From the IMG/VR virus record IMGVR_UViG_2778261505_000002: a stretch of DNA of 64,000 bases, one strand, 5' to 3'. Below are positions 2,755-38,344 of this stretch, piece by piece (position 1 is the first letter of the stretch; the number at the start of each line of letters is the position of its first letter). The translations under genes and the position numbers were made by a program. Below the pieces are notes generated by a model. That model saw only the letters and a program-made list of their open reading frames with translations. It made no database searches and was not told where the DNA came from. This stretch comes from a virus (lineage: Duplodnaviria > Heunggongvirae > Uroviricota > Caudoviricetes).

Positions 2755-3495
2755 ATGAGCCAAATCTTTTTCGATACCATCGACAACGACCAGTACGACT
2801 TCATGACAGAGTGGAATACCGCTGTTATGGACAAGTGGGTCGCTGAAAACATTGGTTTGTCGCGCTGTAAAGACGAGGCTGAACTCTTCGAGACGAAGTG
2901 GTTTGATTACCGCGACATGCATCCTCTCATGGCCACCTGTCTTTTTACGGAGGCATACAAACGTCAGTACTCAAATATCATGCTGACGCACGGTCGCGAA
3001 CACTTTGAAACAGCTCCGTTCACCACCGGGTTAAAACGTCTGCCTTATCAGGAGTTGTCGACTGCCAATAAAACGTCGCTATGGAAAGCACGCCAGTTTG
3101 CGGATCGCTATTGCTGCTCATACGACTACTTTATCTCCACCGTTCTTTCCGCAGCTGCACGACGGCTGTGGGACAAGCTGCCGCGCCCACAGCATTTATG
3201 GCAGCCAGAACTGATTGAGATATTTGAAGAGAAATTAGCCAGACGCGCAACAACCCGTCTGGATGACTCTCTGGTTAGCTTTAAGCATATGGGAGACATG
3301 CAGTTCAACCCGATTCAGGAAAGCTATTTTGAGTGGATTCTGGAGCGTTTGCGCACCATCCCTCGCAGCAAGCGCATACGCGCAATTTTCTCCGCTATCT
3401 GGCTAATGGAAATCGTTCCAGAGCGCCTTATTTCCGCCCACTTTCCAGAAGAACTGGAAGAAGCACGGCGGTTTATTGATCCCCTATCTAATTAA
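2755..3495 (+). CDS. Hypothetical protein
   Basis: Track ORF 2746..3495 (GTG); ATG at 2755 after AGGTGAG; no recognisable motif. Confidence 0.45.
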   Translation: MSQIFFDTIDNDQYDFMTEWNTAVMDKWVAENIGLSRCKDEAELFETKWFDYRDMHPLMATCLFTEAYKRQYSNIMLTHGREHFETAPFTTGLKRLPYQELSTANKTSLWKARQFADRYCCSYDYFISTVLSAAARRLWDKLPRPQHLWQPELIEIFEEKLARRATTRLDDSLVSFKHMGDMQFNPIQESYFEWILERLRTIPRSKRIRAIFSAIWLMEIVPERLISAHFPEELEEARRFIDPLSN

Positions 3496-3538
3496 CTAAT
3501 ACTAGAAAACAATTTGTTTAAAAAACAAAGGAAAGCAC

Positions 3539-4879
3539 ATGACCGAACTTTGCCATACAGGACGCGGGCTGTCCGAAGAATTTGATGAAGATTTCCAGAA
3601 CAGACTGACGGCATATTTTTGTCGTGATCACGAGTTTCTTACTCGTGCGGGAGATCTGGTTGTGCCTAGCCAGTTTGCCAATGCGGCCAATGCCATATTG
3701 GTTAATATGGTTTCGGGCTATTACCGTATGTACAAGAGCGCGCCCTCTTCATCTGCAATTCTGGATATGCTTAAGCGTGCGAAACGCGATAAGACTATCC
3801 GTGAGGAACTATTCGCCGATGTTGTTGCTGCGTTTAAGCGCATCCTTGCAGAAAAATTGTCCGATACCTCGTACATGGTTGACCAGGTATCAACCTTCGC
3901 AAAAAGTGTAGCGTTTGATGATGCTCTGATTAAGGCTGCTGAACTGAAAGAGAAAGGCGACTTTCAGGGGGCGATGGCAATCATGGCCAAGGTTCAGCAG
4001 ATTGGATCGAACGAAGCGACCGGAATCTATGACTACTACACCTCCGCAAGTGAGCGATTGAAAGCGCGTGAATATGAGGCTTCAGAGGAGTATGTACCAA
4101 ACAGTATTACAACTGGACTCCCTCTTCTCGATAGGTTGCTGTACCAAAAAGGCTGGGCAAAGCGCGAAATGGTGCTCTTCATGGGGTTCGCTAAATCCGG
4201 TAAATCGACCGCAATGGGGGAGTTTTCCATAAACGCAACACTTGCTGGCTACAATGTTCTGTATCTCTCGCTGGAGGTTCACACCACCATTTTATCCGAC
4301 CGTTTTGATGCAAGATTGTCGGAGACGGAAATGTCCAAGTTGGTGGAACGGCGCGATGAAGTTCATCGTAAGTTGGCAGAGTTGGGAGCCTCTAAGGGGA
4401 TTGGTAGTTTGTGGGTTGTTGAGCGTCCGTCAGGAAGTATGTCACCGGCAGATCTGGACCGTATGCTTAACAGTATGAAAGCCAATGGCATGGTGCCTGA
4501 CATGGTTGTTGTCGACTACGCAGATTTGATGCGTGCCAGTTATGACCTTCGTGATGATCGCGCCAACATTCGTAGTATCTACACCGATTTACGTGCTCTT
4601 TATGACAAGCATAACGTTGCTGGGATCACGGCATCGCAGACAAACCGTGAAGGTGGCGCGTCAGAAGTTGCCACAATGATGCACGCTGCCGACAACATCG
4701 AAAAAGTACGTATTGCTGACCTGGTAATAACGATCAACAAAACCGAAGAAGAAGAAGCGAAAGGAGAGGCTCGTCTCTACTTTGCTGGTTCACGTAACCA
4801 GCAGGGAGGGATCAGCATTCGCGTTAAACAAAACCTCGAACAAATGCGCTTCATTGAGCGAATCTTAGACGTTACCTAA
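3539..4879 (+). CDS. DnaB-like replicative DNA helicase
   Basis: 446 aa; RecA-fold core with Walker A GFAKSGKST and Walker B-like VVVDYADLM; conserved upstream AAAGGAAAGCACATG start context. Confidence 0.8.
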   Translation: MTELCHTGRGLSEEFDEDFQNRLTAYFCRDHEFLTRAGDLVVPSQFANAANAILVNMVSGYYRMYKSAPSSSAILDMLKRAKRDKTIREELFADVVAAFKRILAEKLSDTSYMVDQVSTFAKSVAFDDALIKAAELKEKGDFQGAMAIMAKVQQIGSNEATGIYDYYTSASERLKAREYEASEEYVPNSITTGLPLLDRLLYQKGWAKREMVLFMGFAKSGKSTAMGEFSINATLAGYNVLYLSLEVHTTILSDRFDARLSETEMSKLVERRDEVHRKLAELGASKGIGSLWVVERPSGSMSPADLDRMLNSMKANGMVPDMVVVDYADLMRASYDLRDDRANIRSIYTDLRALYDKHNVAGITASQTNREGGASEVATMMHAADNIEKVRIADLVITINKTEEEEAKGEARLYFAGSRNQQGGISIRVKQNLEQMRFIERILDVT

Positions 4880-24183: not shown

Positions 24184-25257
24184 ATGGCAAAAGGAAAATC
24201 CGCACTGGCACTTGCTCTGAAAAAGAAAATCGGTAGCAACGACGAAATTCAGAAAGTAACTCATTGGATTGATACAGGCTTTCCACCGTTAAACAAAGCT
24301 ATTTCTGGTCGTTACGATGGCGGCTTCCCATGTGGTCGTATCGTCGAAGTATTCGGTCCTCCAAGTGCAGGGAAAACGTTCCTTGCAACAGCAGCGATGA
24401 TCTCCGCTCAAAAACAAGATGGTCTGGCGGTATTCCTCGATCATGAAAACAGTTTTGACGTTGGCCTGGCTGTCGCCAATGGCCTGAACGCAGATGAGGA
24501 TGACGGTCAGTGGGTATACAAGCAGCCTGACACCTTCGAAGACTCTGTAGAGTTGATCGGCACAATACTTAAATTGGTACGTGATGAAGAGCTTATCCCT
24601 GAATCAGCACCTATCTGTATCGTGGCTGACTCACTTGCGTCTATGGTTCCGAACTCCAAAGCCGAGAAGTTCGAAAAGATGGCTGAAGGCACTGCCAAAG
24701 ACAAAGATCAGCTAAACATGAACGACAATACGGCACTGGCTCGTGCGACAAGTGCGAACTTCCCTACTCTGGCTTTGTGGGCACGCAAATACAACGCCTG
24801 CATCATCTTCTTGAATCAGGTTCGCACAAAAATCGGTGTAATGTTTGGCGACCCTACTACGTCGCCAGGTGGAGATTCACCGAAGTTCTACGCTTCTGTA
24901 CGTATCCGTCTTGGTGCATCGGTGATGAAGGATGGTAAAGAGAAGATCGGCCAGGACGTAGGCGCAGAATGCATCAAAAACAAAGTTGCACCACCGTATG
25001 GCAAATGCACCTGGAAATTCTACTTCGATCCTACTCGTGGCCTCGACGTTATCGAATCGCTCGTCGAGTACATGCTGGAAGAAGGATACCTGCCAAAGAA
25101 CGCCAGCGGGCGAGTTGAAATTGGTGACAAGAAATACACCAAATCACAGATCGTCGAGATGTATCGGGAGAAGCCACTGGCTGAAATCATTGCGGCTTTG
25201 CAGGCAATCGACGACCGAAGAGCAAAAGACAACCCCACCGAGTCAGTAGAAGAGTAA
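24184..25257 (+). CDS. RecA/UvsX-like recombinase
   Basis: 357 aa; Walker A GPPSAGKTFLA in a RecA-fold core, Walker B-like CIVADSLAS. Confidence 0.85.
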   Translation: MAKGKSALALALKKKIGSNDEIQKVTHWIDTGFPPLNKAISGRYDGGFPCGRIVEVFGPPSAGKTFLATAAMISAQKQDGLAVFLDHENSFDVGLAVANGLNADEDDGQWVYKQPDTFEDSVELIGTILKLVRDEELIPESAPICIVADSLASMVPNSKAEKFEKMAEGTAKDKDQLNMNDNTALARATSANFPTLALWARKYNACIIFLNQVRTKIGVMFGDPTTSPGGDSPKFYASVRIRLGASVMKDGKEKIGQDVGAECIKNKVAPPYGKCTWKFYFDPTRGLDVIESLVEYMLEEGYLPKNASGRVEIGDKKYTKSQIVEMYREKPLAEIIAALQAIDDRRAKDNPTESVEE

Positions 25258-25261
25258 ACAC

Positions 25262-25287
25262 AAGGCGTCCACAGGACGCCTTTTTTA
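25262..25287 (+). terminator. Rho-independent terminator
   Basis: AAGGCGTCC-ACA-GGACGCCTT followed by TTTTTAT. Confidence 0.7.
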
Positions 25288-25349
25288 TCTCTTGAAAATA
25301 TATAAGTACTTACTTATTATTTTCGCATAACAACCACATAGGAAAACAC

Positions 25350-25550
25350 ATGATCAAAATCTATCTATTGGCAGTAGCCACAGGCGTTTCAGTGGCTCTC
25401 ATCTACGGTTTACTGGTTCCGTCGCTGATTTCTACCAAGAGTGATTTAGCCGTCATGTTTGGAGTTATCGTTGGTTTTGGTGCTCCTGTAATCGGTCTTA
25501 TTGCTGGTCGTAAGTTTATCAACTCATTAATCAAAGCAAAGGGGAAATAA
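25350..25550 (+). CDS. Small two-helix membrane protein
   Basis: 66 aa; two hydrophobic segments; GGAAAACACATG start context; immediately upstream of the SPFH gene. Confidence 0.45.
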   Translation: MIKIYLLAVATGVSVALIYGLLVPSLISTKSDLAVMFGVIVGFGAPVIGLIAGRKFINSLIKAKGK

Positions 25551-25553
25551 GTA

Positions 25554-26384
25554 ATGAAGAAAGGTTTACTTGCAGTTGCTCTGGCGGCTATTTGCACAAT
25601 GGGTCTTACTGGCTGTGATCGCGTGGAGCCTGGATACGTTGGCATCAAAGTAAACAAATTAGGTGAAGACAAAGGGATCGGTGAAGTGGTTGGCGTTGGG
25701 CGCCAATGGACAGGTCTTAACACCGAACTTTACGTATTCCCGACCTTCAAACAAATGAAGACCTACGACGAACCGTTCACATTCCAGATGAGTGACGGTA
25801 CTGCTATTGGTCACAAAATTGGCGTTGCGTATCTGGTTAATCGTGACAAGGTAACGACGGTGTTCCAGACCTATCGCAAAGGCGTAGACGATATCACCGA
25901 ATCAGATCTGCGTCAGAAAATTGCCGACTCTCTAAACCGTTTGGCCAGCCGTATGACCACTGACTCATTTATCGACGGTGGTAAGGCGCAATTGCTGGAC
26001 AACGCACTGAAAGATATTCAGAAAGAGATGTCTCCGGTTGGTATTGAGGTACTGAGCCTGTCATGGGTTGGAAAGCCTGATTACCCAAAAACCGTCATTG
26101 AATCTATCAACGCCAAAGTAACGGCTAACCAGCGTACTCTGCAACGTCAGCAGGAAGTTGAACAACGTAAAGCTGAGGCGAATATGCTACGTGAACAGGC
26201 TAATGGTGAAGCTGATGCTATCCGTGCTCGCGCGCAAGCAGAAGCCGACGCCATTCGTCTGCGCGGTGAAGCTCTGCGTCAAAACCCGAACGTTATGGAG
26301 CTGGAAGCCATCAATAAATGGAATGGCCAGTTACCGCAGTACATGACTCAAGGGGCTAACACTCCTTTCATTACAGTGAAATAA
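25554..26384 (+). CDS. SPFH/band-7 domain lipoprotein
   Basis: 276 aa; lipoprotein signal with lipobox LTGC; SPFH-like core followed by Ala/Glu/Arg-rich coiled-coil EADAIRARAQAEADAIRLRGEALRQ. Confidence 0.65.
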   Translation: MKKGLLAVALAAICTMGLTGCDRVEPGYVGIKVNKLGEDKGIGEVVGVGRQWTGLNTELYVFPTFKQMKTYDEPFTFQMSDGTAIGHKIGVAYLVNRDKVTTVFQTYRKGVDDITESDLRQKIADSLNRLASRMTTDSFIDGGKAQLLDNALKDIQKEMSPVGIEVLSLSWVGKPDYPKTVIESINAKVTANQRTLQRQQEVEQRKAEANMLREQANGEADAIRARAQAEADAIRLRGEALRQNPNVMELEAINKWNGQLPQYMTQGANTPFITVK

Positions 26385-26402
26385 CTCTCATTAAGAAGAT
26401 CA

Positions 26403-26430
26403 GGCGTCCAGTTGGACGCCGTTTTATTCT
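26403..26430 (+). terminator. Rho-independent terminator
   Basis: GGCGTCCA-GTT-GGACGCC followed by GTTTTATTCT. Confidence 0.65.
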
Positions 26431-26479: not shown

Positions 26480-27304
26480 ATGCCCAACCACATTACAAAC
26501 GAAATCCGAGTCATAGGTGGTACAAATAAACAACGCTTAGATTTCATACGTGCCATAACTAACAAAAAAGGTCTAATTGACTTTAATACCATTTGCAGAC
26601 GTCCGAAAAGTATAGAAATGGAAGAAAACAATCATATCAGGCGCATGGCCTCTGCAATGGCGGGCGAAACAGTTTACGACCACATGTTCGGTGAATTAAA
26701 AACTCCAGAACAGGTCGAATTAGCTATGCGTGAATCAGGAATGACACGCAAGGAAATTCGCAAAATCAAAGAGCAGGCTCTTATGCGGCTTGAGAATTAT
26801 CGTCGCTATGGCTATTACTCATGGTTTGACTGGTCGCGAGCTAATTGGGGAACAAAATGGAATGCCTACAACATCGAAATGCCCGTAAAACGTATCCCTA
26901 CACGTATTAAGTACGGCCATAATTTCCGCCATACACACGTTCGAGCATATGCAAAACGAATCTATAAAAAACGTCTTGCAAGACATGCCGCAACTGGTGG
27001 TGAGTTGGTGATTCGCTTTGAAACAGCATGGTCTATGCCAAAACCAATTTATCAGGCGATGGCTAGAAAGTTCCCGCACCTTGAGTTTGTAATACGTTAT
27101 GCAGACGAAGACTTCGGCAATAACTGCGGATTCATTTTACTTCGCAACGGCAAATGGGAATATGACTACATTGCACCGGCGAATAACGAACAATCGTCAG
27201 AAGAAAAAATCAAATGGTGCAAGTTCGCCTTTGAGTTATGTTGTCCTGGTATCACTCCACAAGAATACGGTCTAAATGAAAAATACGAATACGCCGGATA
27301 TTAA
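26480..27304 (+). CDS. Hypothetical protein
   Basis: 274-aa ORF; conserved WFDWSRANWGTKWNAY segment but no family I can name. Confidence 0.5.
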   Translation: MPNHITNEIRVIGGTNKQRLDFIRAITNKKGLIDFNTICRRPKSIEMEENNHIRRMASAMAGETVYDHMFGELKTPEQVELAMRESGMTRKEIRKIKEQALMRLENYRRYGYYSWFDWSRANWGTKWNAYNIEMPVKRIPTRIKYGHNFRHTHVRAYAKRIYKKRLARHAATGGELVIRFETAWSMPKPIYQAMARKFPHLEFVIRYADEDFGNNCGFILLRNGKWEYDYIAPANNEQSSEEKIKWCKFAFELCCPGITPQEYGLNEKYEYAGY

Positions 27305-28077
27305 TGCTTTACGCACGAAGCATAGAGGTTAAGAAGATGAAAAGAAAAATTGAAGAACCAAAAACGACCCTTAATAAACATGGGGAAAAAATTCAAACAC
27401 ACCCAGCGTTCGGTCTTGTGAAAACAAGCCGTGTTAGCACGACTGGCATTCGTCTATTTGATTCAGAACTGGAACATAGAGACTATATTGAAATAGGCGT
27501 TTACGAGGCTGAACTATCCTTGGATAATGAACGAACCCGGCCACAAAGGAGTAGCAATAGACGGCCTTTAGTTGAAATTAGACTTAGCCAGGCACAATGG
27601 GCTGCTATGGTTAGCAGTTTTGGTGTGGGCGAAGGTGTGCCATGCACTATTTCATATAAAACCATTGGCGACTCAATTAGAGTTCATGATATTGCCGAGC
27701 AAAAAAGTATTCGACAAAAATTCAACGATCAAATAAAGGCAGCTACGAATAGTGAGATTGATCGACTTAATCAGCAAGTATCAGAGCTAGGTGAGCTTGT
27801 GAAAAAAGGAAGAGCTGGAAAACGTGACCTTGAAGAACTATATAGAAAACTTGCATCTGCTGTAGCTAACCTTCCTGAAAATCTGTGCTTTGCTACCGAA
27901 TTAATGCAGGAGCAAATGGATGAAATTGTCTCATCTGGAAAGGCGGAGATTGAGGCGTATGTTGCAGGCACTGTTATGCGTAAAGGGTTAGCAGCATTAG
28001 GCACAGAATCATGCATTAACGATGCTCCTACTGTCTCTATCACCAAAATGGAAAGCGGTAAAGAATTACTGCCATAA
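27304..28077 (+). CDS. Hypothetical coiled-coil protein (start may be ATG 27337)
   Basis: 257-aa ORF; GAGG RBS precedes ATG 27337. Confidence 0.45.
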   Translation: MLYARSIEVKKMKRKIEEPKTTLNKHGEKIQTHPAFGLVKTSRVSTTGIRLFDSELEHRDYIEIGVYEAELSLDNERTRPQRSSNRRPLVEIRLSQAQWAAMVSSFGVGEGVPCTISYKTIGDSIRVHDIAEQKSIRQKFNDQIKAATNSEIDRLNQQVSELGELVKKGRAGKRDLEELYRKLASAVANLPENLCFATELMQEQMDEIVSSGKAEIEAYVAGTVMRKGLAALGTESCINDAPTVSITKMESGKELLP

Positions 28078-30148: not shown

Positions 30149-30328
30149 ATGAAGATTTTTATTGAATACTTGTTACTCATCGTTTCAATAGCTTTTGTCA
30201 TCGACTGCATTTTCACTGGTGTCATTCGTAAAGTCTTTTCCCCGGTGCACGACGTAGTCATAAACGCTTTGGCTATCGTGCTCGTATTTAATTCAGCATT
30301 TGATGTAATCAAAGAGGTGGCAGCATGA
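30149..30328 (+). CDS. Small membrane protein (59 aa, not in ORF track; weak)
   Basis: Hydrophobic ORF MKIFIEYLLLIVSIAFVIDCIF; no clear RBS; start abuts a palindromic-motif copy. Confidence 0.3.
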   Translation: MKIFIEYLLLIVSIAFVIDCIFTGVIRKVFSPVHDVVINALAIVLVFNSAFDVIKEVAA

Positions 30329-30660
30329 AGACCATCCCATTCGCGCTGTTGTTTCTTTCTTCGATCGTTGTGGCCGACACCACTGTTTATCAGTGTGAAA
30401 TGTCTGTAGCCGACGTTAAGAATGGCACTCTTACCGACGTCATAAAAGCACCATATGGAGCGATGGTCGTAGACAGCGGCGACCAGTTCTATGTTGTGCG
30501 TGACGATCGAGTGTTGTCATCCCCATATCTCACAAATCGTAATGGCAAATTAACCGGCGTCGGAGAAGACCACTTCGTATACAACAAATACAAGGGCTTC
30601 TATGGCGTTCACGCTTCTCAGCAAAGCTACCTTTTCGATGACTGCAAGGAGGTTGGGTAA
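30325..30660 (+). CDS. Secreted/periplasmic hypothetical protein
   Basis: 111 aa; N-terminal signal-peptide-like MKTIPFALLFLSSIVVA. Confidence 0.45.
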   Translation: MKTIPFALLFLSSIVVADTTVYQCEMSVADVKNGTLTDVIKAPYGAMVVDSGDQFYVVRDDRVLSSPYLTNRNGKLTGVGEDHFVYNKYKGFYGVHASQQSYLFDDCKEVG

Positions 30661-30918: not shown

Positions 30919-31452
30919 CACCGCTGACAGCATACACAATCAACTACCGCTGATAGCATATCGAGAGTCTATCTCACCGCTCACAGCATACATTACTCGA
31001 TTTTTTACCGCTGACAGCATACTTAAGAAATTGCATGAATAATGTGTCCCGGTATGGGTATAACCAGAACAAAATTACCGCTGGCAGCATACGAATGTCT
31101 GACATATACCATTAATTACCGCTGATAGCATATCCAAACAAAAATTCCTCAATAAAACACCGCTGACAGCATACATTCTATCAGAGAGTAGCAGGCAATA
31201 AATGCCTTTCACTACAAGCAATCAGCGCAATAGCAATAGAATGTTAGTGAGCGCAAACCTATATGGAATGCACTCTTCGAGGTTAGTAACCACTGGGGAG
31301 GTATGACAGAGCATTGAGTGGTGATAGATGATTTACCGCTCACAGCATACGTTCATCTCACTATACCGCTGGTAGCATATCTTTAACCGTTCACAGCATA
31401 CTTTTCAGAAAAATAGCCGCTGATAGCATACATTTCACCGCTGACAGCATAT
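30919..31452. repeat. Iteron array (about 12 copies of ~17-bp repeat ACCGCTGACAGCATAC) downstream of repA
   Basis: Copies counted by eye with minor variants (CTGATAGCATAT, CTCACAGCATAC, CTGGCAGCATAC); irregular spacing with a ~150-bp gap between copies 7 and 8. Confidence 0.8.
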
Positions 31453-32546
31453 CAAAGCAGTTTGAGACTATTGGAAAGGATCTCAATCATCTTGATATTT
31501 TCAGGCGTCAAATTCTGCGAAAGTTCGGTTATCTTGTTGATAATGTTCTGTTTGGCATCAATTTCCCCAGCTTTCTCATCTGGTTTTTTGGGTTCGATGT
31601 CTTCAGGTTTTGGCGGTGCGACTTTGAGTTTTGGATTGCGGCTGTGAATCTGGATATAGATCGACCGCCCACGCTTAATCTCGCTGTATTCGAGATAGCC
31701 CAAATCTTGGAGAGCTTTTAAGCCGTTACGTATAGTCTGATTCTGCGAGCTGACATTCCTGCTACTCAAATTGAGTCGCGCACGCAATCGAGCAAGCGAT
31801 ACCGGCGCAGGCTTGGTTGGAAGACTTTCGATGAAGGTGTACAGAGCCTGTGCTGTTTCTTTGCGTGGTAGCTTATTGATAACCTTTAACTGCAAAAGAA
31901 CCTTATGGTCAAAGCGATATAGTTCGGCCAGCTTCGGTTCTGCATAGAACACCACCGTATCTTTCTGCTCGTTGTAGTCCACGCTATTGATGAGGTGCAC
32001 CATCAGAAGCGAGATCTTGTTAGAGCCGTCGACGTTCTTTTCTTCATACGTTCTCTGGAAAGACAGAGTTGTACGCATGATCTTCAAAAGACTGTTTGTA
32101 AGCCGGTCGCGGAGTGTTTTGCGGATCTGTGACGATGGATAGCCACAAAACTTAGCAAATTTCGTGATACTTAACTCGACACGACCGTTAGGTTCGCCGT
32201 ATTCTGCCAGCGAACGCACAACGCCCACCCACGTTTTGAAATCATGATCCATGTCGAGACGAGGACCGGTTATCTTGATATCGGAATAGCCTTCAGAACG
32301 GGCTACTTCGAGCTGGACAAGCTCCTTTGAAGCATCGATCTCATTTGGCTTGTTACGTTTACTGTATTTTGTTCCCTTAAGCGTGGGGACGAACAACCCC
32401 AGTCGCATCAACGCAATTGGTTGGACTGTATTGTTGCTATTAGGGACAAGTTCCCCTGTGTACAATTCAAGGGAACCTTCTTCAAAGTTGTCGATGTTAT
32501 CTTCTACTTCTTTGTTATTTTTACCTTTTTTATTTTTTGTGGACAT
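31452..32546 (-). CDS. repA: Iteron-binding replication initiator RepA
   Basis: 364 aa from Met at 32546 (track ORF extends into the upstream iterons); NSNNTVQPIALMRLGLFVP and IKITGPRLDMDHDFKTW segments match what I recall of P1/RepFIB-type RepA; flanked by iteron arrays. Confidence 0.8.
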   Translation of the reverse strand: MSTKNKKGKNNKEVEDNIDNFEEGSLELYTGELVPNSNNTVQPIALMRLGLFVPTLKGTKYSKRNKPNEIDASKELVQLEVARSEGYSDIKITGPRLDMDHDFKTWVGVVRSLAEYGEPNGRVELSITKFAKFCGYPSSQIRKTLRDRLTNSLLKIMRTTLSFQRTYEEKNVDGSNKISLLMVHLINSVDYNEQKDTVVFYAEPKLAELYRFDHKVLLQLKVINKLPRKETAQALYTFIESLPTKPAPVSLARLRARLNLSSRNVSSQNQTIRNGLKALQDLGYLEYSEIKRGRSIYIQIHSRNPKLKVAPPKPEDIEPKKPDEKAGEIDAKQNIINKITELSQNLTPENIKMIEILSNSLKLL

Positions 32547-32565
32547 GTGGACACCTTTGTCATTC

Positions 32566-32668
32566 AACCGCTGACAGCATACTTGATTTGCCGCTGACAG
32601 AATACCAAAAACAGTTGGCAGCATACGGTGAACCGCTGACAGACTATCAATTACCGCTGACAGCATAC
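32566..32668. repeat. Origin-side iterons (5 copies) upstream of repA
   Basis: Same CCGCTGACAGCATAC repeat family, five copies within ~100 bp immediately 5' of repA. Confidence 0.75.
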
Positions 32669-38310: not shown

Positions 38311-38344
38311 TTTCATTGATAGGTAAGTACTTATCTATTAACAT

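Follow-up and report, generated by a model that had tools for sequence, protein, structure and literature searches.

Within a 64,000-nucleotide stretch of viral DNA (IMG/VR record IMGVR_UViG_2778261505_000002; hereafter, the window, in whose numbering all positions are given), two genes located between positions 25350 and 26430 encode a 66-amino-acid (aa) protein with two hydrophobic helices and, directly downstream, a 276-aa lipoprotein of the SPFH (band-7) type. Sequence comparisons identify this pair as the counterpart of the gp19/gp20-type module of coliphage N4 (PHROG 1130 plus PHROG 200). The explanation that in our judgment accounts best for the data as a whole, with a probability of roughly 0.55, is that the two proteins form a periplasmic cage complex with a role in envelope protection. 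The window is a phage-plasmid of the SSU5/pHCM2/pMT1 type. Its initial annotation, made from the letters alone, had proposed a two-helix membrane open reading frame (ORF) followed by a lipobox-containing SPFH ORF, and both are present, at 25350-25550 and 25554-26384 of the plus strand, respectively.

The 276-aa product is recognized by the Pfam Band_7 model (PF01145) over residues 23-209 with E = 2.6e-30 (106.2 bits, the curated cut-off being 23.6) and by PHROG 200, labeled “lipoprotein” (3e-108); the SPFH assignment thus holds in profile searches. Within the phage-plasmid clade, the ratio of nonsynonymous to synonymous substitution rates (dN/dS) of its gene is 0.03. An AlphaFold model based on an alignment of 110 diverse relatives (predicted local distance difference test score, pLDDT, of 92.7) consists of a signal helix, an alpha/beta SPFH core (residues 21-176; 25614-26081), a 65-residue helix (residues 179-243; 26088-26282), a short helix and a conserved tail; a conserved C-terminal motif, KWNGxLP, is encoded at 26316-26336. 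When the model was used as a Foldseek query, full-length matches were obtained to HflC (3e-14) and HflK (6e-14), followed by prohibitin, erlin, stomatin, flotillin and QmcA, with E values between 3e-14 and 7e-8 over the whole set. Since all of these proteins form cages attached to membranes, the modeled structure argues that the phage product is a true SPFH protein with a cage-forming build that belongs to a distant branch of the superfamily.

HflC (TIGR01932) and HflK (TIGR01933) were also the sole NCBIfam matches, both weak, and HflK was the sole match in a search of PDB sequences (E = 0.007), there being no solved structure close to the phage protein. Taken together with its predicted location on the same side of the membrane as HflK/C (PMC13086221) and with the presence of the pair in early operons of temperate phages phiP27 and P88, this likeness could mean that the phage protein is an HflK/C mimic. 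Its cage would engage the periplasmic domains of FtsH or compete with HflK/C and would alter FtsH proteolysis (of CII-like regulators, LpxC or phage and defence membrane proteins), thereby tuning the lysis-lysogeny decision or the success of infection. We consider this unlikely. The scores fall far under the equivalog cut-offs of the two families (30.2 versus 134.4 bits for HflC, 18.7 versus 159.4 bits for HflK), which rules out HflK/HflC orthology; the cassette and every locus examined contain a single SPFH gene and no K/C-type paralogue pair; strictly virulent phages, for which no choice between lysis and lysogeny arises, carry the module just as commonly; and we found no evidence of contact with FtsH. 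The label “serine protease”, which many phage records carry, is treated here as a legacy annotation, as no protease domain was found in the protein.

The N terminus of the SPFH protein, MKKGLLAVALAAICTMGLTGC followed by DRVEPG, is composed of MKK, a hydrophobic stretch and the lipobox LTGC, which fits the pattern [LVI][ASTVI][GAS]C, i.e., a signal peptide (residues 1-20) that precedes Cys21 (25614-25616), with Asp at position +2. The segment that begins with this Cys, CDRVEPGxVGIKV, is conserved. The product is therefore a predicted lipoprotein, lipidated at Cys21. The lipobox is kept in ca. 122 of 150 family representatives; its cysteine is near-invariant (≥90%) in the closer clade and invariant in naturally fused forms described below, all of which retain the lipobox. 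Some family members carry an uncleaved N-terminal anchor instead, for which the inner membrane is the only possible location. In E. coli, Asp at +2 after the lipid-bearing Cys is a signal for inner-membrane retention, and this residue is present in the clade of the window.

The hydrophobic helices of the 66-aa partner span approximately residues 4-25 and 33-53 and are followed by a basic tail (RKFINSLIKAKGK). The protein matches PHROG 1130 (9e-26). No Pfam family was found for it, and none was found consistently among 16 family members. Its gene has a median dN/dS of 0.15 over 29 haplotypes of the phage-plasmid clade. An alignment of partners from 16 diverse phages (profile A2) has an invariant proline and near-invariant serine and glycine around the loop between the helices, and a loop motif, P-x-[LM]-[IV]-S-[AS]-x-[DS], is shared among phages; in the window it takes the form P24-x-L-I-S28...G38. 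Across phages the protein is 60-85 aa long and has two helices. The PHROG match, the low dN/dS and conservation next to SPFH genes of unrelated phages show that the small ORF is a real, conserved gene; its products constitute a protein family of their own. Because word-indexed searches with the 66-aa protein reached little (close relatives only, or 72 proteins), the breadth of the family was established from genomic context.

For this purpose, a hidden Markov model (HMM) of the partner was run on 369 usable loci, drawn from annotated phages, from one genome scan and from five scans of viral contigs. A match was found just 5′ of 135 out of 147 distinct SPFH sequences (92%), at a median gap of 7 nt, bearing out the co-occurrence of the two genes; after clustering at 90% identity, an upstream match was present in 36 of 40 clusters, and at 70% identity in 16 of 20. 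In total, 360 matches lay in the interval upstream of the SPFH gene and only two elsewhere, and no unrelated match was found elsewhere in the SPFH loci. The two outlying matches, in Shigella flexneri and E. coli chromosomes (loci L088 and L089), are the partner gene itself, moved by ca. 800 nt through an insertion. At these loci, an element of ca. 770 bp (positions ~3210-3980), which we take from its sequence to be IS1-like, lies exactly between the prophage partner and SPFH genes. On inspection of the four HMM-negative clusters, a motif-bearing two-helix ORF was found in three (the L284 group, phiEa104 and a crAss-like phage, where the ORF is unannotated). Among HMM-negative loci, U47 has the motif-bearing ORF two genes upstream, CcrSwift is ambiguous and locus L260 is different.

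At least 16 of the best 150 representative clusters of the SPFH family are in-frame partner-lipoprotein fusions. Their parts follow one another in this order: the two-helix partner with its loop motif, a basic linker, the signal-peptide helix, the lipobox cysteine and the SPFH domain. The fused precursor may either be split by signal peptidase II or be bypassed by the use of an internal start. One of the fusions (P0198) is located in the early region of a phage, 3′ of a PDDEXK exonuclease gene. Such natural fusions argue strongly, on genomic grounds, for joint action of the two proteins.

The fusions also bear on membrane topology, since they require the C terminus of the partner to be cytoplasmic. 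Positive-inside statistics agree with this requirement (on average, 1.4 lysines plus arginines at the N terminus, 0.4 in the loop and 3.9 in the C-terminal tail), and so does a structural model of a fusion, in which three N-terminal helices are present (pLDDT 82). The partner is therefore predicted to be N-in/C-in, which places its conserved loop on the periplasmic side, the side where the SPFH domain lies.

Class II holins and pinholins are likewise small proteins with two transmembrane helices, N-in/C-in topology and a charged C-terminal tail. Given this likeness to the 60-85-aa partner, the cage could serve membrane integrity or the timing of lysis, either by stabilizing the inner membrane and the proton-motive force over a long infection or by restraining a holin-like partner, so that lysis or permeabilization would be delayed. 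Many carriers of the module are large or have a long latent period (jumbo, phiCbK-like and N4-like phages), and the lysis inhibition of N4 lasts for hours, its trigger being unknown (PMC12642591). Yet the pinholin of N4 is gp63, its lysis proteins are gp60-63, and no tabulated N4 rapid-lysis mutation (~60 isolates, Table 1) is located in gp19 or gp20. Moreover, the pair is never beside lysis genes at the loci examined, the partner has no holin PHROG match, and its conserved residues are in the loop, where they fit a binding interface better than a pore. We therefore regard a lysis-timing function as quite unlikely.

The initial annotation had suggested that the short protein might be a minimal analogue of NfeD, the usual companion of SPFH proteins. 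The idea of a dedicated, stoichiometric membrane partner is supported, as an analogy, whereas homology to NfeD is not. The window protein is too short for an NfeD domain, no OB-fold domain of NfeD (PF01957) was detected by Pfam in it or in the 16 family members, and comparison of profile A2 with E. coli YbbJ by hhalign gave a probability of 1.2%; NfeD homology of the partner is thereby contradicted. The SPFH protein itself is only marginally similar to QmcA (E = 0.007). The one NfeD-like trait found is that the partner gene adjoins or overlaps the SPFH gene (in 135 of 147 distinct loci), a trait that does not define the family on its own. Bacterial SPFH genes do often form operons with nfeD, whose product has N-terminal transmembrane helices (PMC13086221), and gene adjacency is strict here. 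One could thus view the cassette as an ordinary microdomain operon of the SPFH-NfeD type with a pared-down NfeD, but the results above make this highly improbable. So does the predicted topology: QmcA-YbbJ cages face the cytoplasm, according to the account of Tan et al. (2024) given in PMC13086221, whereas the phage complex is predicted to be on the opposite, periplasmic side of the membrane.

In a protein-level search, the SPFH lipoprotein was found in 377 phage records, both temperate and virulent. The carriers include N4-like phages, Vequintavirinae, jumbo phages, Bruynoghevirus, Ounavirinae, phiCbK-like, crAss-like and Lak phages, and among their hosts are plant, soil and water bacteria (Erwinia, Agrobacterium, Caulobacter and Stenotrophomonas). 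An exhaustive search of 1.84 billion representatives retrieved 2,816 related clusters at E ≤ 1e-3 and 902 at E ≤ 1e-10. The module is present in 373 of 5,426 complete E. coli genomes (~7%). A scan of genome contigs with back-translated patterns, which were narrow, recovered 10 loci. At most of the loci opened, a gene for a 60-85-aa two-helix protein abuts or overlaps the start of the SPFH gene. In N4, gp19 (“membrane protein”, 68 aa) and gp20 (“lipoprotein, similar to Yersinia pestis protein”) are encoded by overlapping genes; over 274 residues, gp20 and the window SPFH protein share 64% identity (E = 2e-130), and comparison of gp19 with the partner profile gave a match of 97.9% probability. 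In P2-like phage P88, a 67-aa “membrane protein” is annotated 5′ of the SPFH gene, and in lambdoid phage phiP27 a 62-aa unannotated ORF overlaps the SPFH start. The pair, which had been seen as part of an accessory segment of the window, is thus not peculiar to such a segment but is a widely conserved phage module, sometimes reduced to one fused gene.

Several loci deserve separate mention. The partner gene is present yet unannotated in phiP27 (L001, 3256-3444), Pokken (L101, 1299-1496) and PhiCrAssBcn1 (L103, 1287-1502). A locus from a metagenome-assembled genome named “archaeon isolate PL23a_bin.95” (L093) encodes a partner almost identical to gp30 of Shigella phage Moo19 and the start of an SPFH gene; it looks like a contig of an N4-like coliphage mis-binned into an archaeal genome. 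At a Buttiauxella gaviniae locus (L086), the otherwise conserved partner ORF upstream of position 4001 has an in-frame TGA at codon 11, which could reflect a pseudogene, a sequencing error or a downstream restart.

In both virulent and temperate phages, the pair is located in early or middle regions close to DNA-metabolism genes. This distribution points to a function during infection rather than to host-directed conversion. We envisage the following sequence of events. The cassette would yield similar quantities of two envelope proteins. One of them, the 276-aa lipoprotein, would be exported and lipid-anchored at Cys21; given its SPFH core, long helix and conserved C-terminal cap segment, it would most likely assemble, as HflK/C does, into a ring or cage located on the periplasmic side of the inner membrane. 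Most likely, the 66-aa partner would lie in or under the cage and tie it to this membrane. Our data establish the domain and fold assignment, the lipobox, the partner family, its close linkage and fusions to the SPFH gene and the anatomy of promoter and terminators, whereas cage assembly, the physical complex, its inner-membrane location and its role are what we infer; the structural part of the scheme, including the complex, appears probable. Acting at the envelope, the two proteins would protect the infected or lysogenic cell; the likeliest mechanism is that superinfecting phages are excluded no later than the passage of their DNA across the inner membrane.

Phages usually achieve exclusion through lipoproteins made early in infection and through small proteins of the inner membrane, such as T5 Llp, T4 Imm and Sp, and HK97 gp15. 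Because the pair is of this type and because the superinfection-exclusion system of N4 is explicitly described as uncharacterised (PMC12642591), exclusion is the role we favor; as a specific function, analogous to that of T4 Imm and Sp, it is proposed tentatively, with somewhat less than even chances.

Several points weigh against a protective cage complex. The literature searched contains no experimental datum on the function of any family member, and the reason for the presence of the gene in a phage is said there to remain “unclear” (PMC13239085). Neither member of the pair matches a PADLOC-DB 2.0 model at E ≤ 0.1 (four proteins were scanned), and a known defence system was dismissed on this ground; the sole match among the four was a weak one of the neighboring ORF 27304-28077 to LmuB (E = 0.009). 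Cage formation and partner contact are inferred from models of monomers. A cage covers little membrane, so that a steric block of DNA entry alone is not obviously sufficient for protection. The +2 residue is not conserved family-wide (S, T, D, E, G, F and other residues occur), so that some members may be located in the outer membrane. Finally, PM0222, a possibly related prophage protein, is located in outer-membrane vesicles (PMC9872710). Functional work on phage SPFH lipoproteins, N4 gp19/gp20 included, was absent from the literature searched. The pair is unmentioned in the CRISPRi-ART paper and the prophage-transcriptome paper, and proteomics papers report the family in lysates in trace amounts only.

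PM0222 also provides the precedent for a role in lysogenic conversion. This HflK/C-like protein (OAZ06802.1), encoded by a prophage of Pasteurella multocida, occurs in outer-membrane vesicles and signals through Toll-like receptors 1/2 (TLR1/2), and its deletion attenuates virulence in mice (PMC9872710). By extension, the window lipoprotein could be a virulence or immunomodulatory factor located at the outer membrane or in vesicles, with the small gene aiding its export. The cassette has its own promoter and terminator in the window, as morons do, and clinical E. coli, Shigella and Yersinia commonly carry the phage-plasmid. The module is, however, also carried by virulent phages and by phages of bacteria from plants, soil and water, where a role in an animal host would make no sense; activation of TLR1/2 is common to all triacylated lipoproteins; Asp at +2 favors inner-membrane retention in the clade of the window; and the relationship of PM0222 to the family is itself only possible. 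A conversion role is therefore very unlikely in our estimate, and we retain the protective cage complex as the preferred explanation.

The cassette is bounded on its 5′ side by the intrinsic terminator of the RecA-like gene (25262-25282, plus strand), which consists of a 9-bp stem with 6 G-C pairs followed by TTTTTT. RNA folding gave -14.7 kcal/mol (z = -4.6) for this hairpin, which is kept in relatives; Y. pestis differs from the window on both arms. Between this terminator and the first cassette gene there is a predicted σ70-like promoter (25292-25320, plus strand), with TTGAAA and TATTAT separated by 17 nt, matching the consensus at 10 of 12 positions. The block TTGAAAAT.TATAA..ACTTACTTAT.AT is nearly invariant across eight divergent phage-plasmid relatives, while its flanks vary. 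The promoter spacer includes a palindrome, TAAGTACTTA (25303-25312). A second exact copy occurs in the window at 38324-38333, between −35-like and −10-like hexamers and just 5′ of a hairpin; with up to one mismatch, there are six matches in the window versus 1.4 expected. One could speculate that the palindrome is an operator, perhaps common to both promoter-like sites. As a regulon motif it was dropped, there being only one further exact copy within the window.

The partner gene is preceded by a ribosome-binding site (RBS), AGGA, at 25340-25343. At the gene junction (25540-25553, plus strand), the RBS of the SPFH gene, AGGGGA (25540-25545), is located inside the last codons of the partner, whose TAA stop (25548-25550) is 3 nt away from the SPFH ATG. 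The position of the RBS and the short gap suggest translational coupling of the two genes. Among ten further phages in which a partner gene abuts the SPFH gene, eight show an overlap of 1-17 nt. Downstream of the SPFH gene, a closing terminator (26403-26430, plus strand) is formed by a hairpin at 26403-26420 (7-bp stem, 6 G-C pairs) and the U-tract GTTTTATTCT; its hairpin folds at -14.3 kcal/mol (z = -4.4), and none of 200 shuffled sequences folded as well. The earlier description of a two-gene unit closed by a terminator is thus borne out. As far as can be predicted, the pair is an isolated promoter-to-terminator unit in the phage-plasmid clade and so has the anatomy of a moron. Only that clade has the free-standing arrangement; the pairs of P88, phiP27 and N4 form part of operons.

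A 2-kb stretch around the pair is 99.7% identical to ca. 109-kb plasmids of E. coli and Shigella and matches 321 plasmid records, Yersinia and Salmonella ones among them, as well as phages CMS-2020a and Cyrano. Comparison of the window with one haplotype (L048) yields a synonymous divergence (dS) of 0.05 for the SPFH gene versus 0.63 for the adjoining partner gene; it follows that a recombination breakpoint lies in one of these genes or between them. The 5′ neighbors of the cassette are genes for a 5′-3′ exonuclease and a RecA-like protein. The latter (24184-25257) encodes 357 aa in the window and 780 aa in phage Cyrano (L003, 919-3258), and in one plasmid relative (H25) a LAGLIDADG homing endonuclease is annotated in the recA stretch; recA of some relatives therefore contains a mobile insertion, an intein or an intron.

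On the 3′ side, similarity to Cyrano, PhiR41_1 and one CMS-2020a record stops ca. 45 nt past the cassette terminator (26474 onwards). The genes replaced in these three encode a DUF1281_C (Api92-like) protein (26480-27304) and a PHROG 6452 protein (27304-28077). Of the accessory segment of small membrane and secreted proteins that had been placed at 25.3-30.9 kb, what stands is that the DNA past the terminator is variable; its supposed content does not, as only two membrane- or secreted-looking ORFs (30149-30328 and 30325-30660) are found in 26.4-30.9 kb. At least ten iteron-like direct repeats (core ACCGCTGACAGCATAC; 30919-31455) adjoin a 404-aa RepA-like gene (31452-32666, minus strand). Together they constitute the replication origin of the phage-plasmid and the boundary of the variable segment that begins 3′ of the cassette.

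Both gene families are already catalogued, as PHROG 200, PHROG 1130 and “SPFH domain-containing protein”. For obligate pairing, fusions, topology and the non-NfeD nature of the partner, the literature searched appears to offer no description. Cages of SPFH proteins (HflK/C, prohibitin, stomatin, flotillin) are under intense structural study, while their phage members have no assigned function; one phage branch can now be seen as a conserved two-component module that extends from N4 to crAss-like, phiCbK-like and jumbo phages. A bolder proposal, which we put forward as speculative and rather doubtful, is that gp19/gp20-type pairs are a hitherto unrecognized, phage-wide envelope system, a periplasmic SPFH cage on a dedicated two-helix inner-membrane subunit, and the missing superinfection-exclusion or sensing device of N4-like phages and many others. 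Such a system would trap or block the genome-delivery machinery of an incoming phage at the inner membrane, and in some lineages a single precursor would be cut into both parts by lipoprotein signal peptidase. If true, SPFH cages would acquire a novel biological role, and the known partners of SPFH proteins would be joined by a new class. As the module is small, self-contained and present in a tractable model phage, N4, its function is directly testable; if it acts at the envelope, it is relevant to phage-plasmid ecology in clinical Enterobacteriaceae and to the design of phage-therapy cocktails.

Among known systems, a functional analogy can be drawn with exclusion proteins of T4 and T5. T4 Imm is a small inner-membrane protein, T4 Sp is periplasmic, and T5 Llp is a lipoprotein exclusion factor; like the products of the cassette, they are early small phage envelope proteins that are membrane-embedded or periplasmic/lipid-anchored. 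Imm and Sp differ in that their genes are non-adjacent and they are not SPFH proteins, and no kinship in sequence or fold is expected. PM0222 (25-35 kDa) resembles the window lipoprotein in that it is an HflK/C-like SPFH protein, is encoded by a prophage and acts on TLR1/2 in the manner of a lipoprotein, but the two are only possibly related, and PM0222 is reported in outer-membrane vesicles, as a virulence factor. E. coli HflK/HflC provide the best full-length structural match (SPFH core and long helix) and likewise have a periplasmic SPFH domain; the HflK/C complex cages FtsH and protrudes into the periplasm (PMC13086221). Sequence similarity is marginal, however, and HflK/HflC are a heterodimer anchored by transmembrane helices, whereas the phage family has a lipid anchor in most members, one SPFH gene and a two-helix partner of its own.

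In QmcA-YbbJ and other SPFH-NfeD operons, an SPFH gene is also located beside a gene for a small membrane protein that is presumably a stoichiometric partner; according to Tan et al. (2024), cited in PMC13086221, 26 heterodimers make up the QmcA-YbbJ cage. In contrast, the phage partner has no NfeD OB-fold and no similarity to YbbJ, the phage complex is predicted to be periplasmic rather than cytoplasmic, and some phage partners are fused N-terminally, ahead of the lipoprotein signal peptide. The direct homologues of the window pair are N4 gp19 and gp20, whose genes have the same order. They differ in setting: N4 is a virulent podophage that carries the pair inside a block of early/middle genes, whereas in the phage-plasmid the pair is free-standing.

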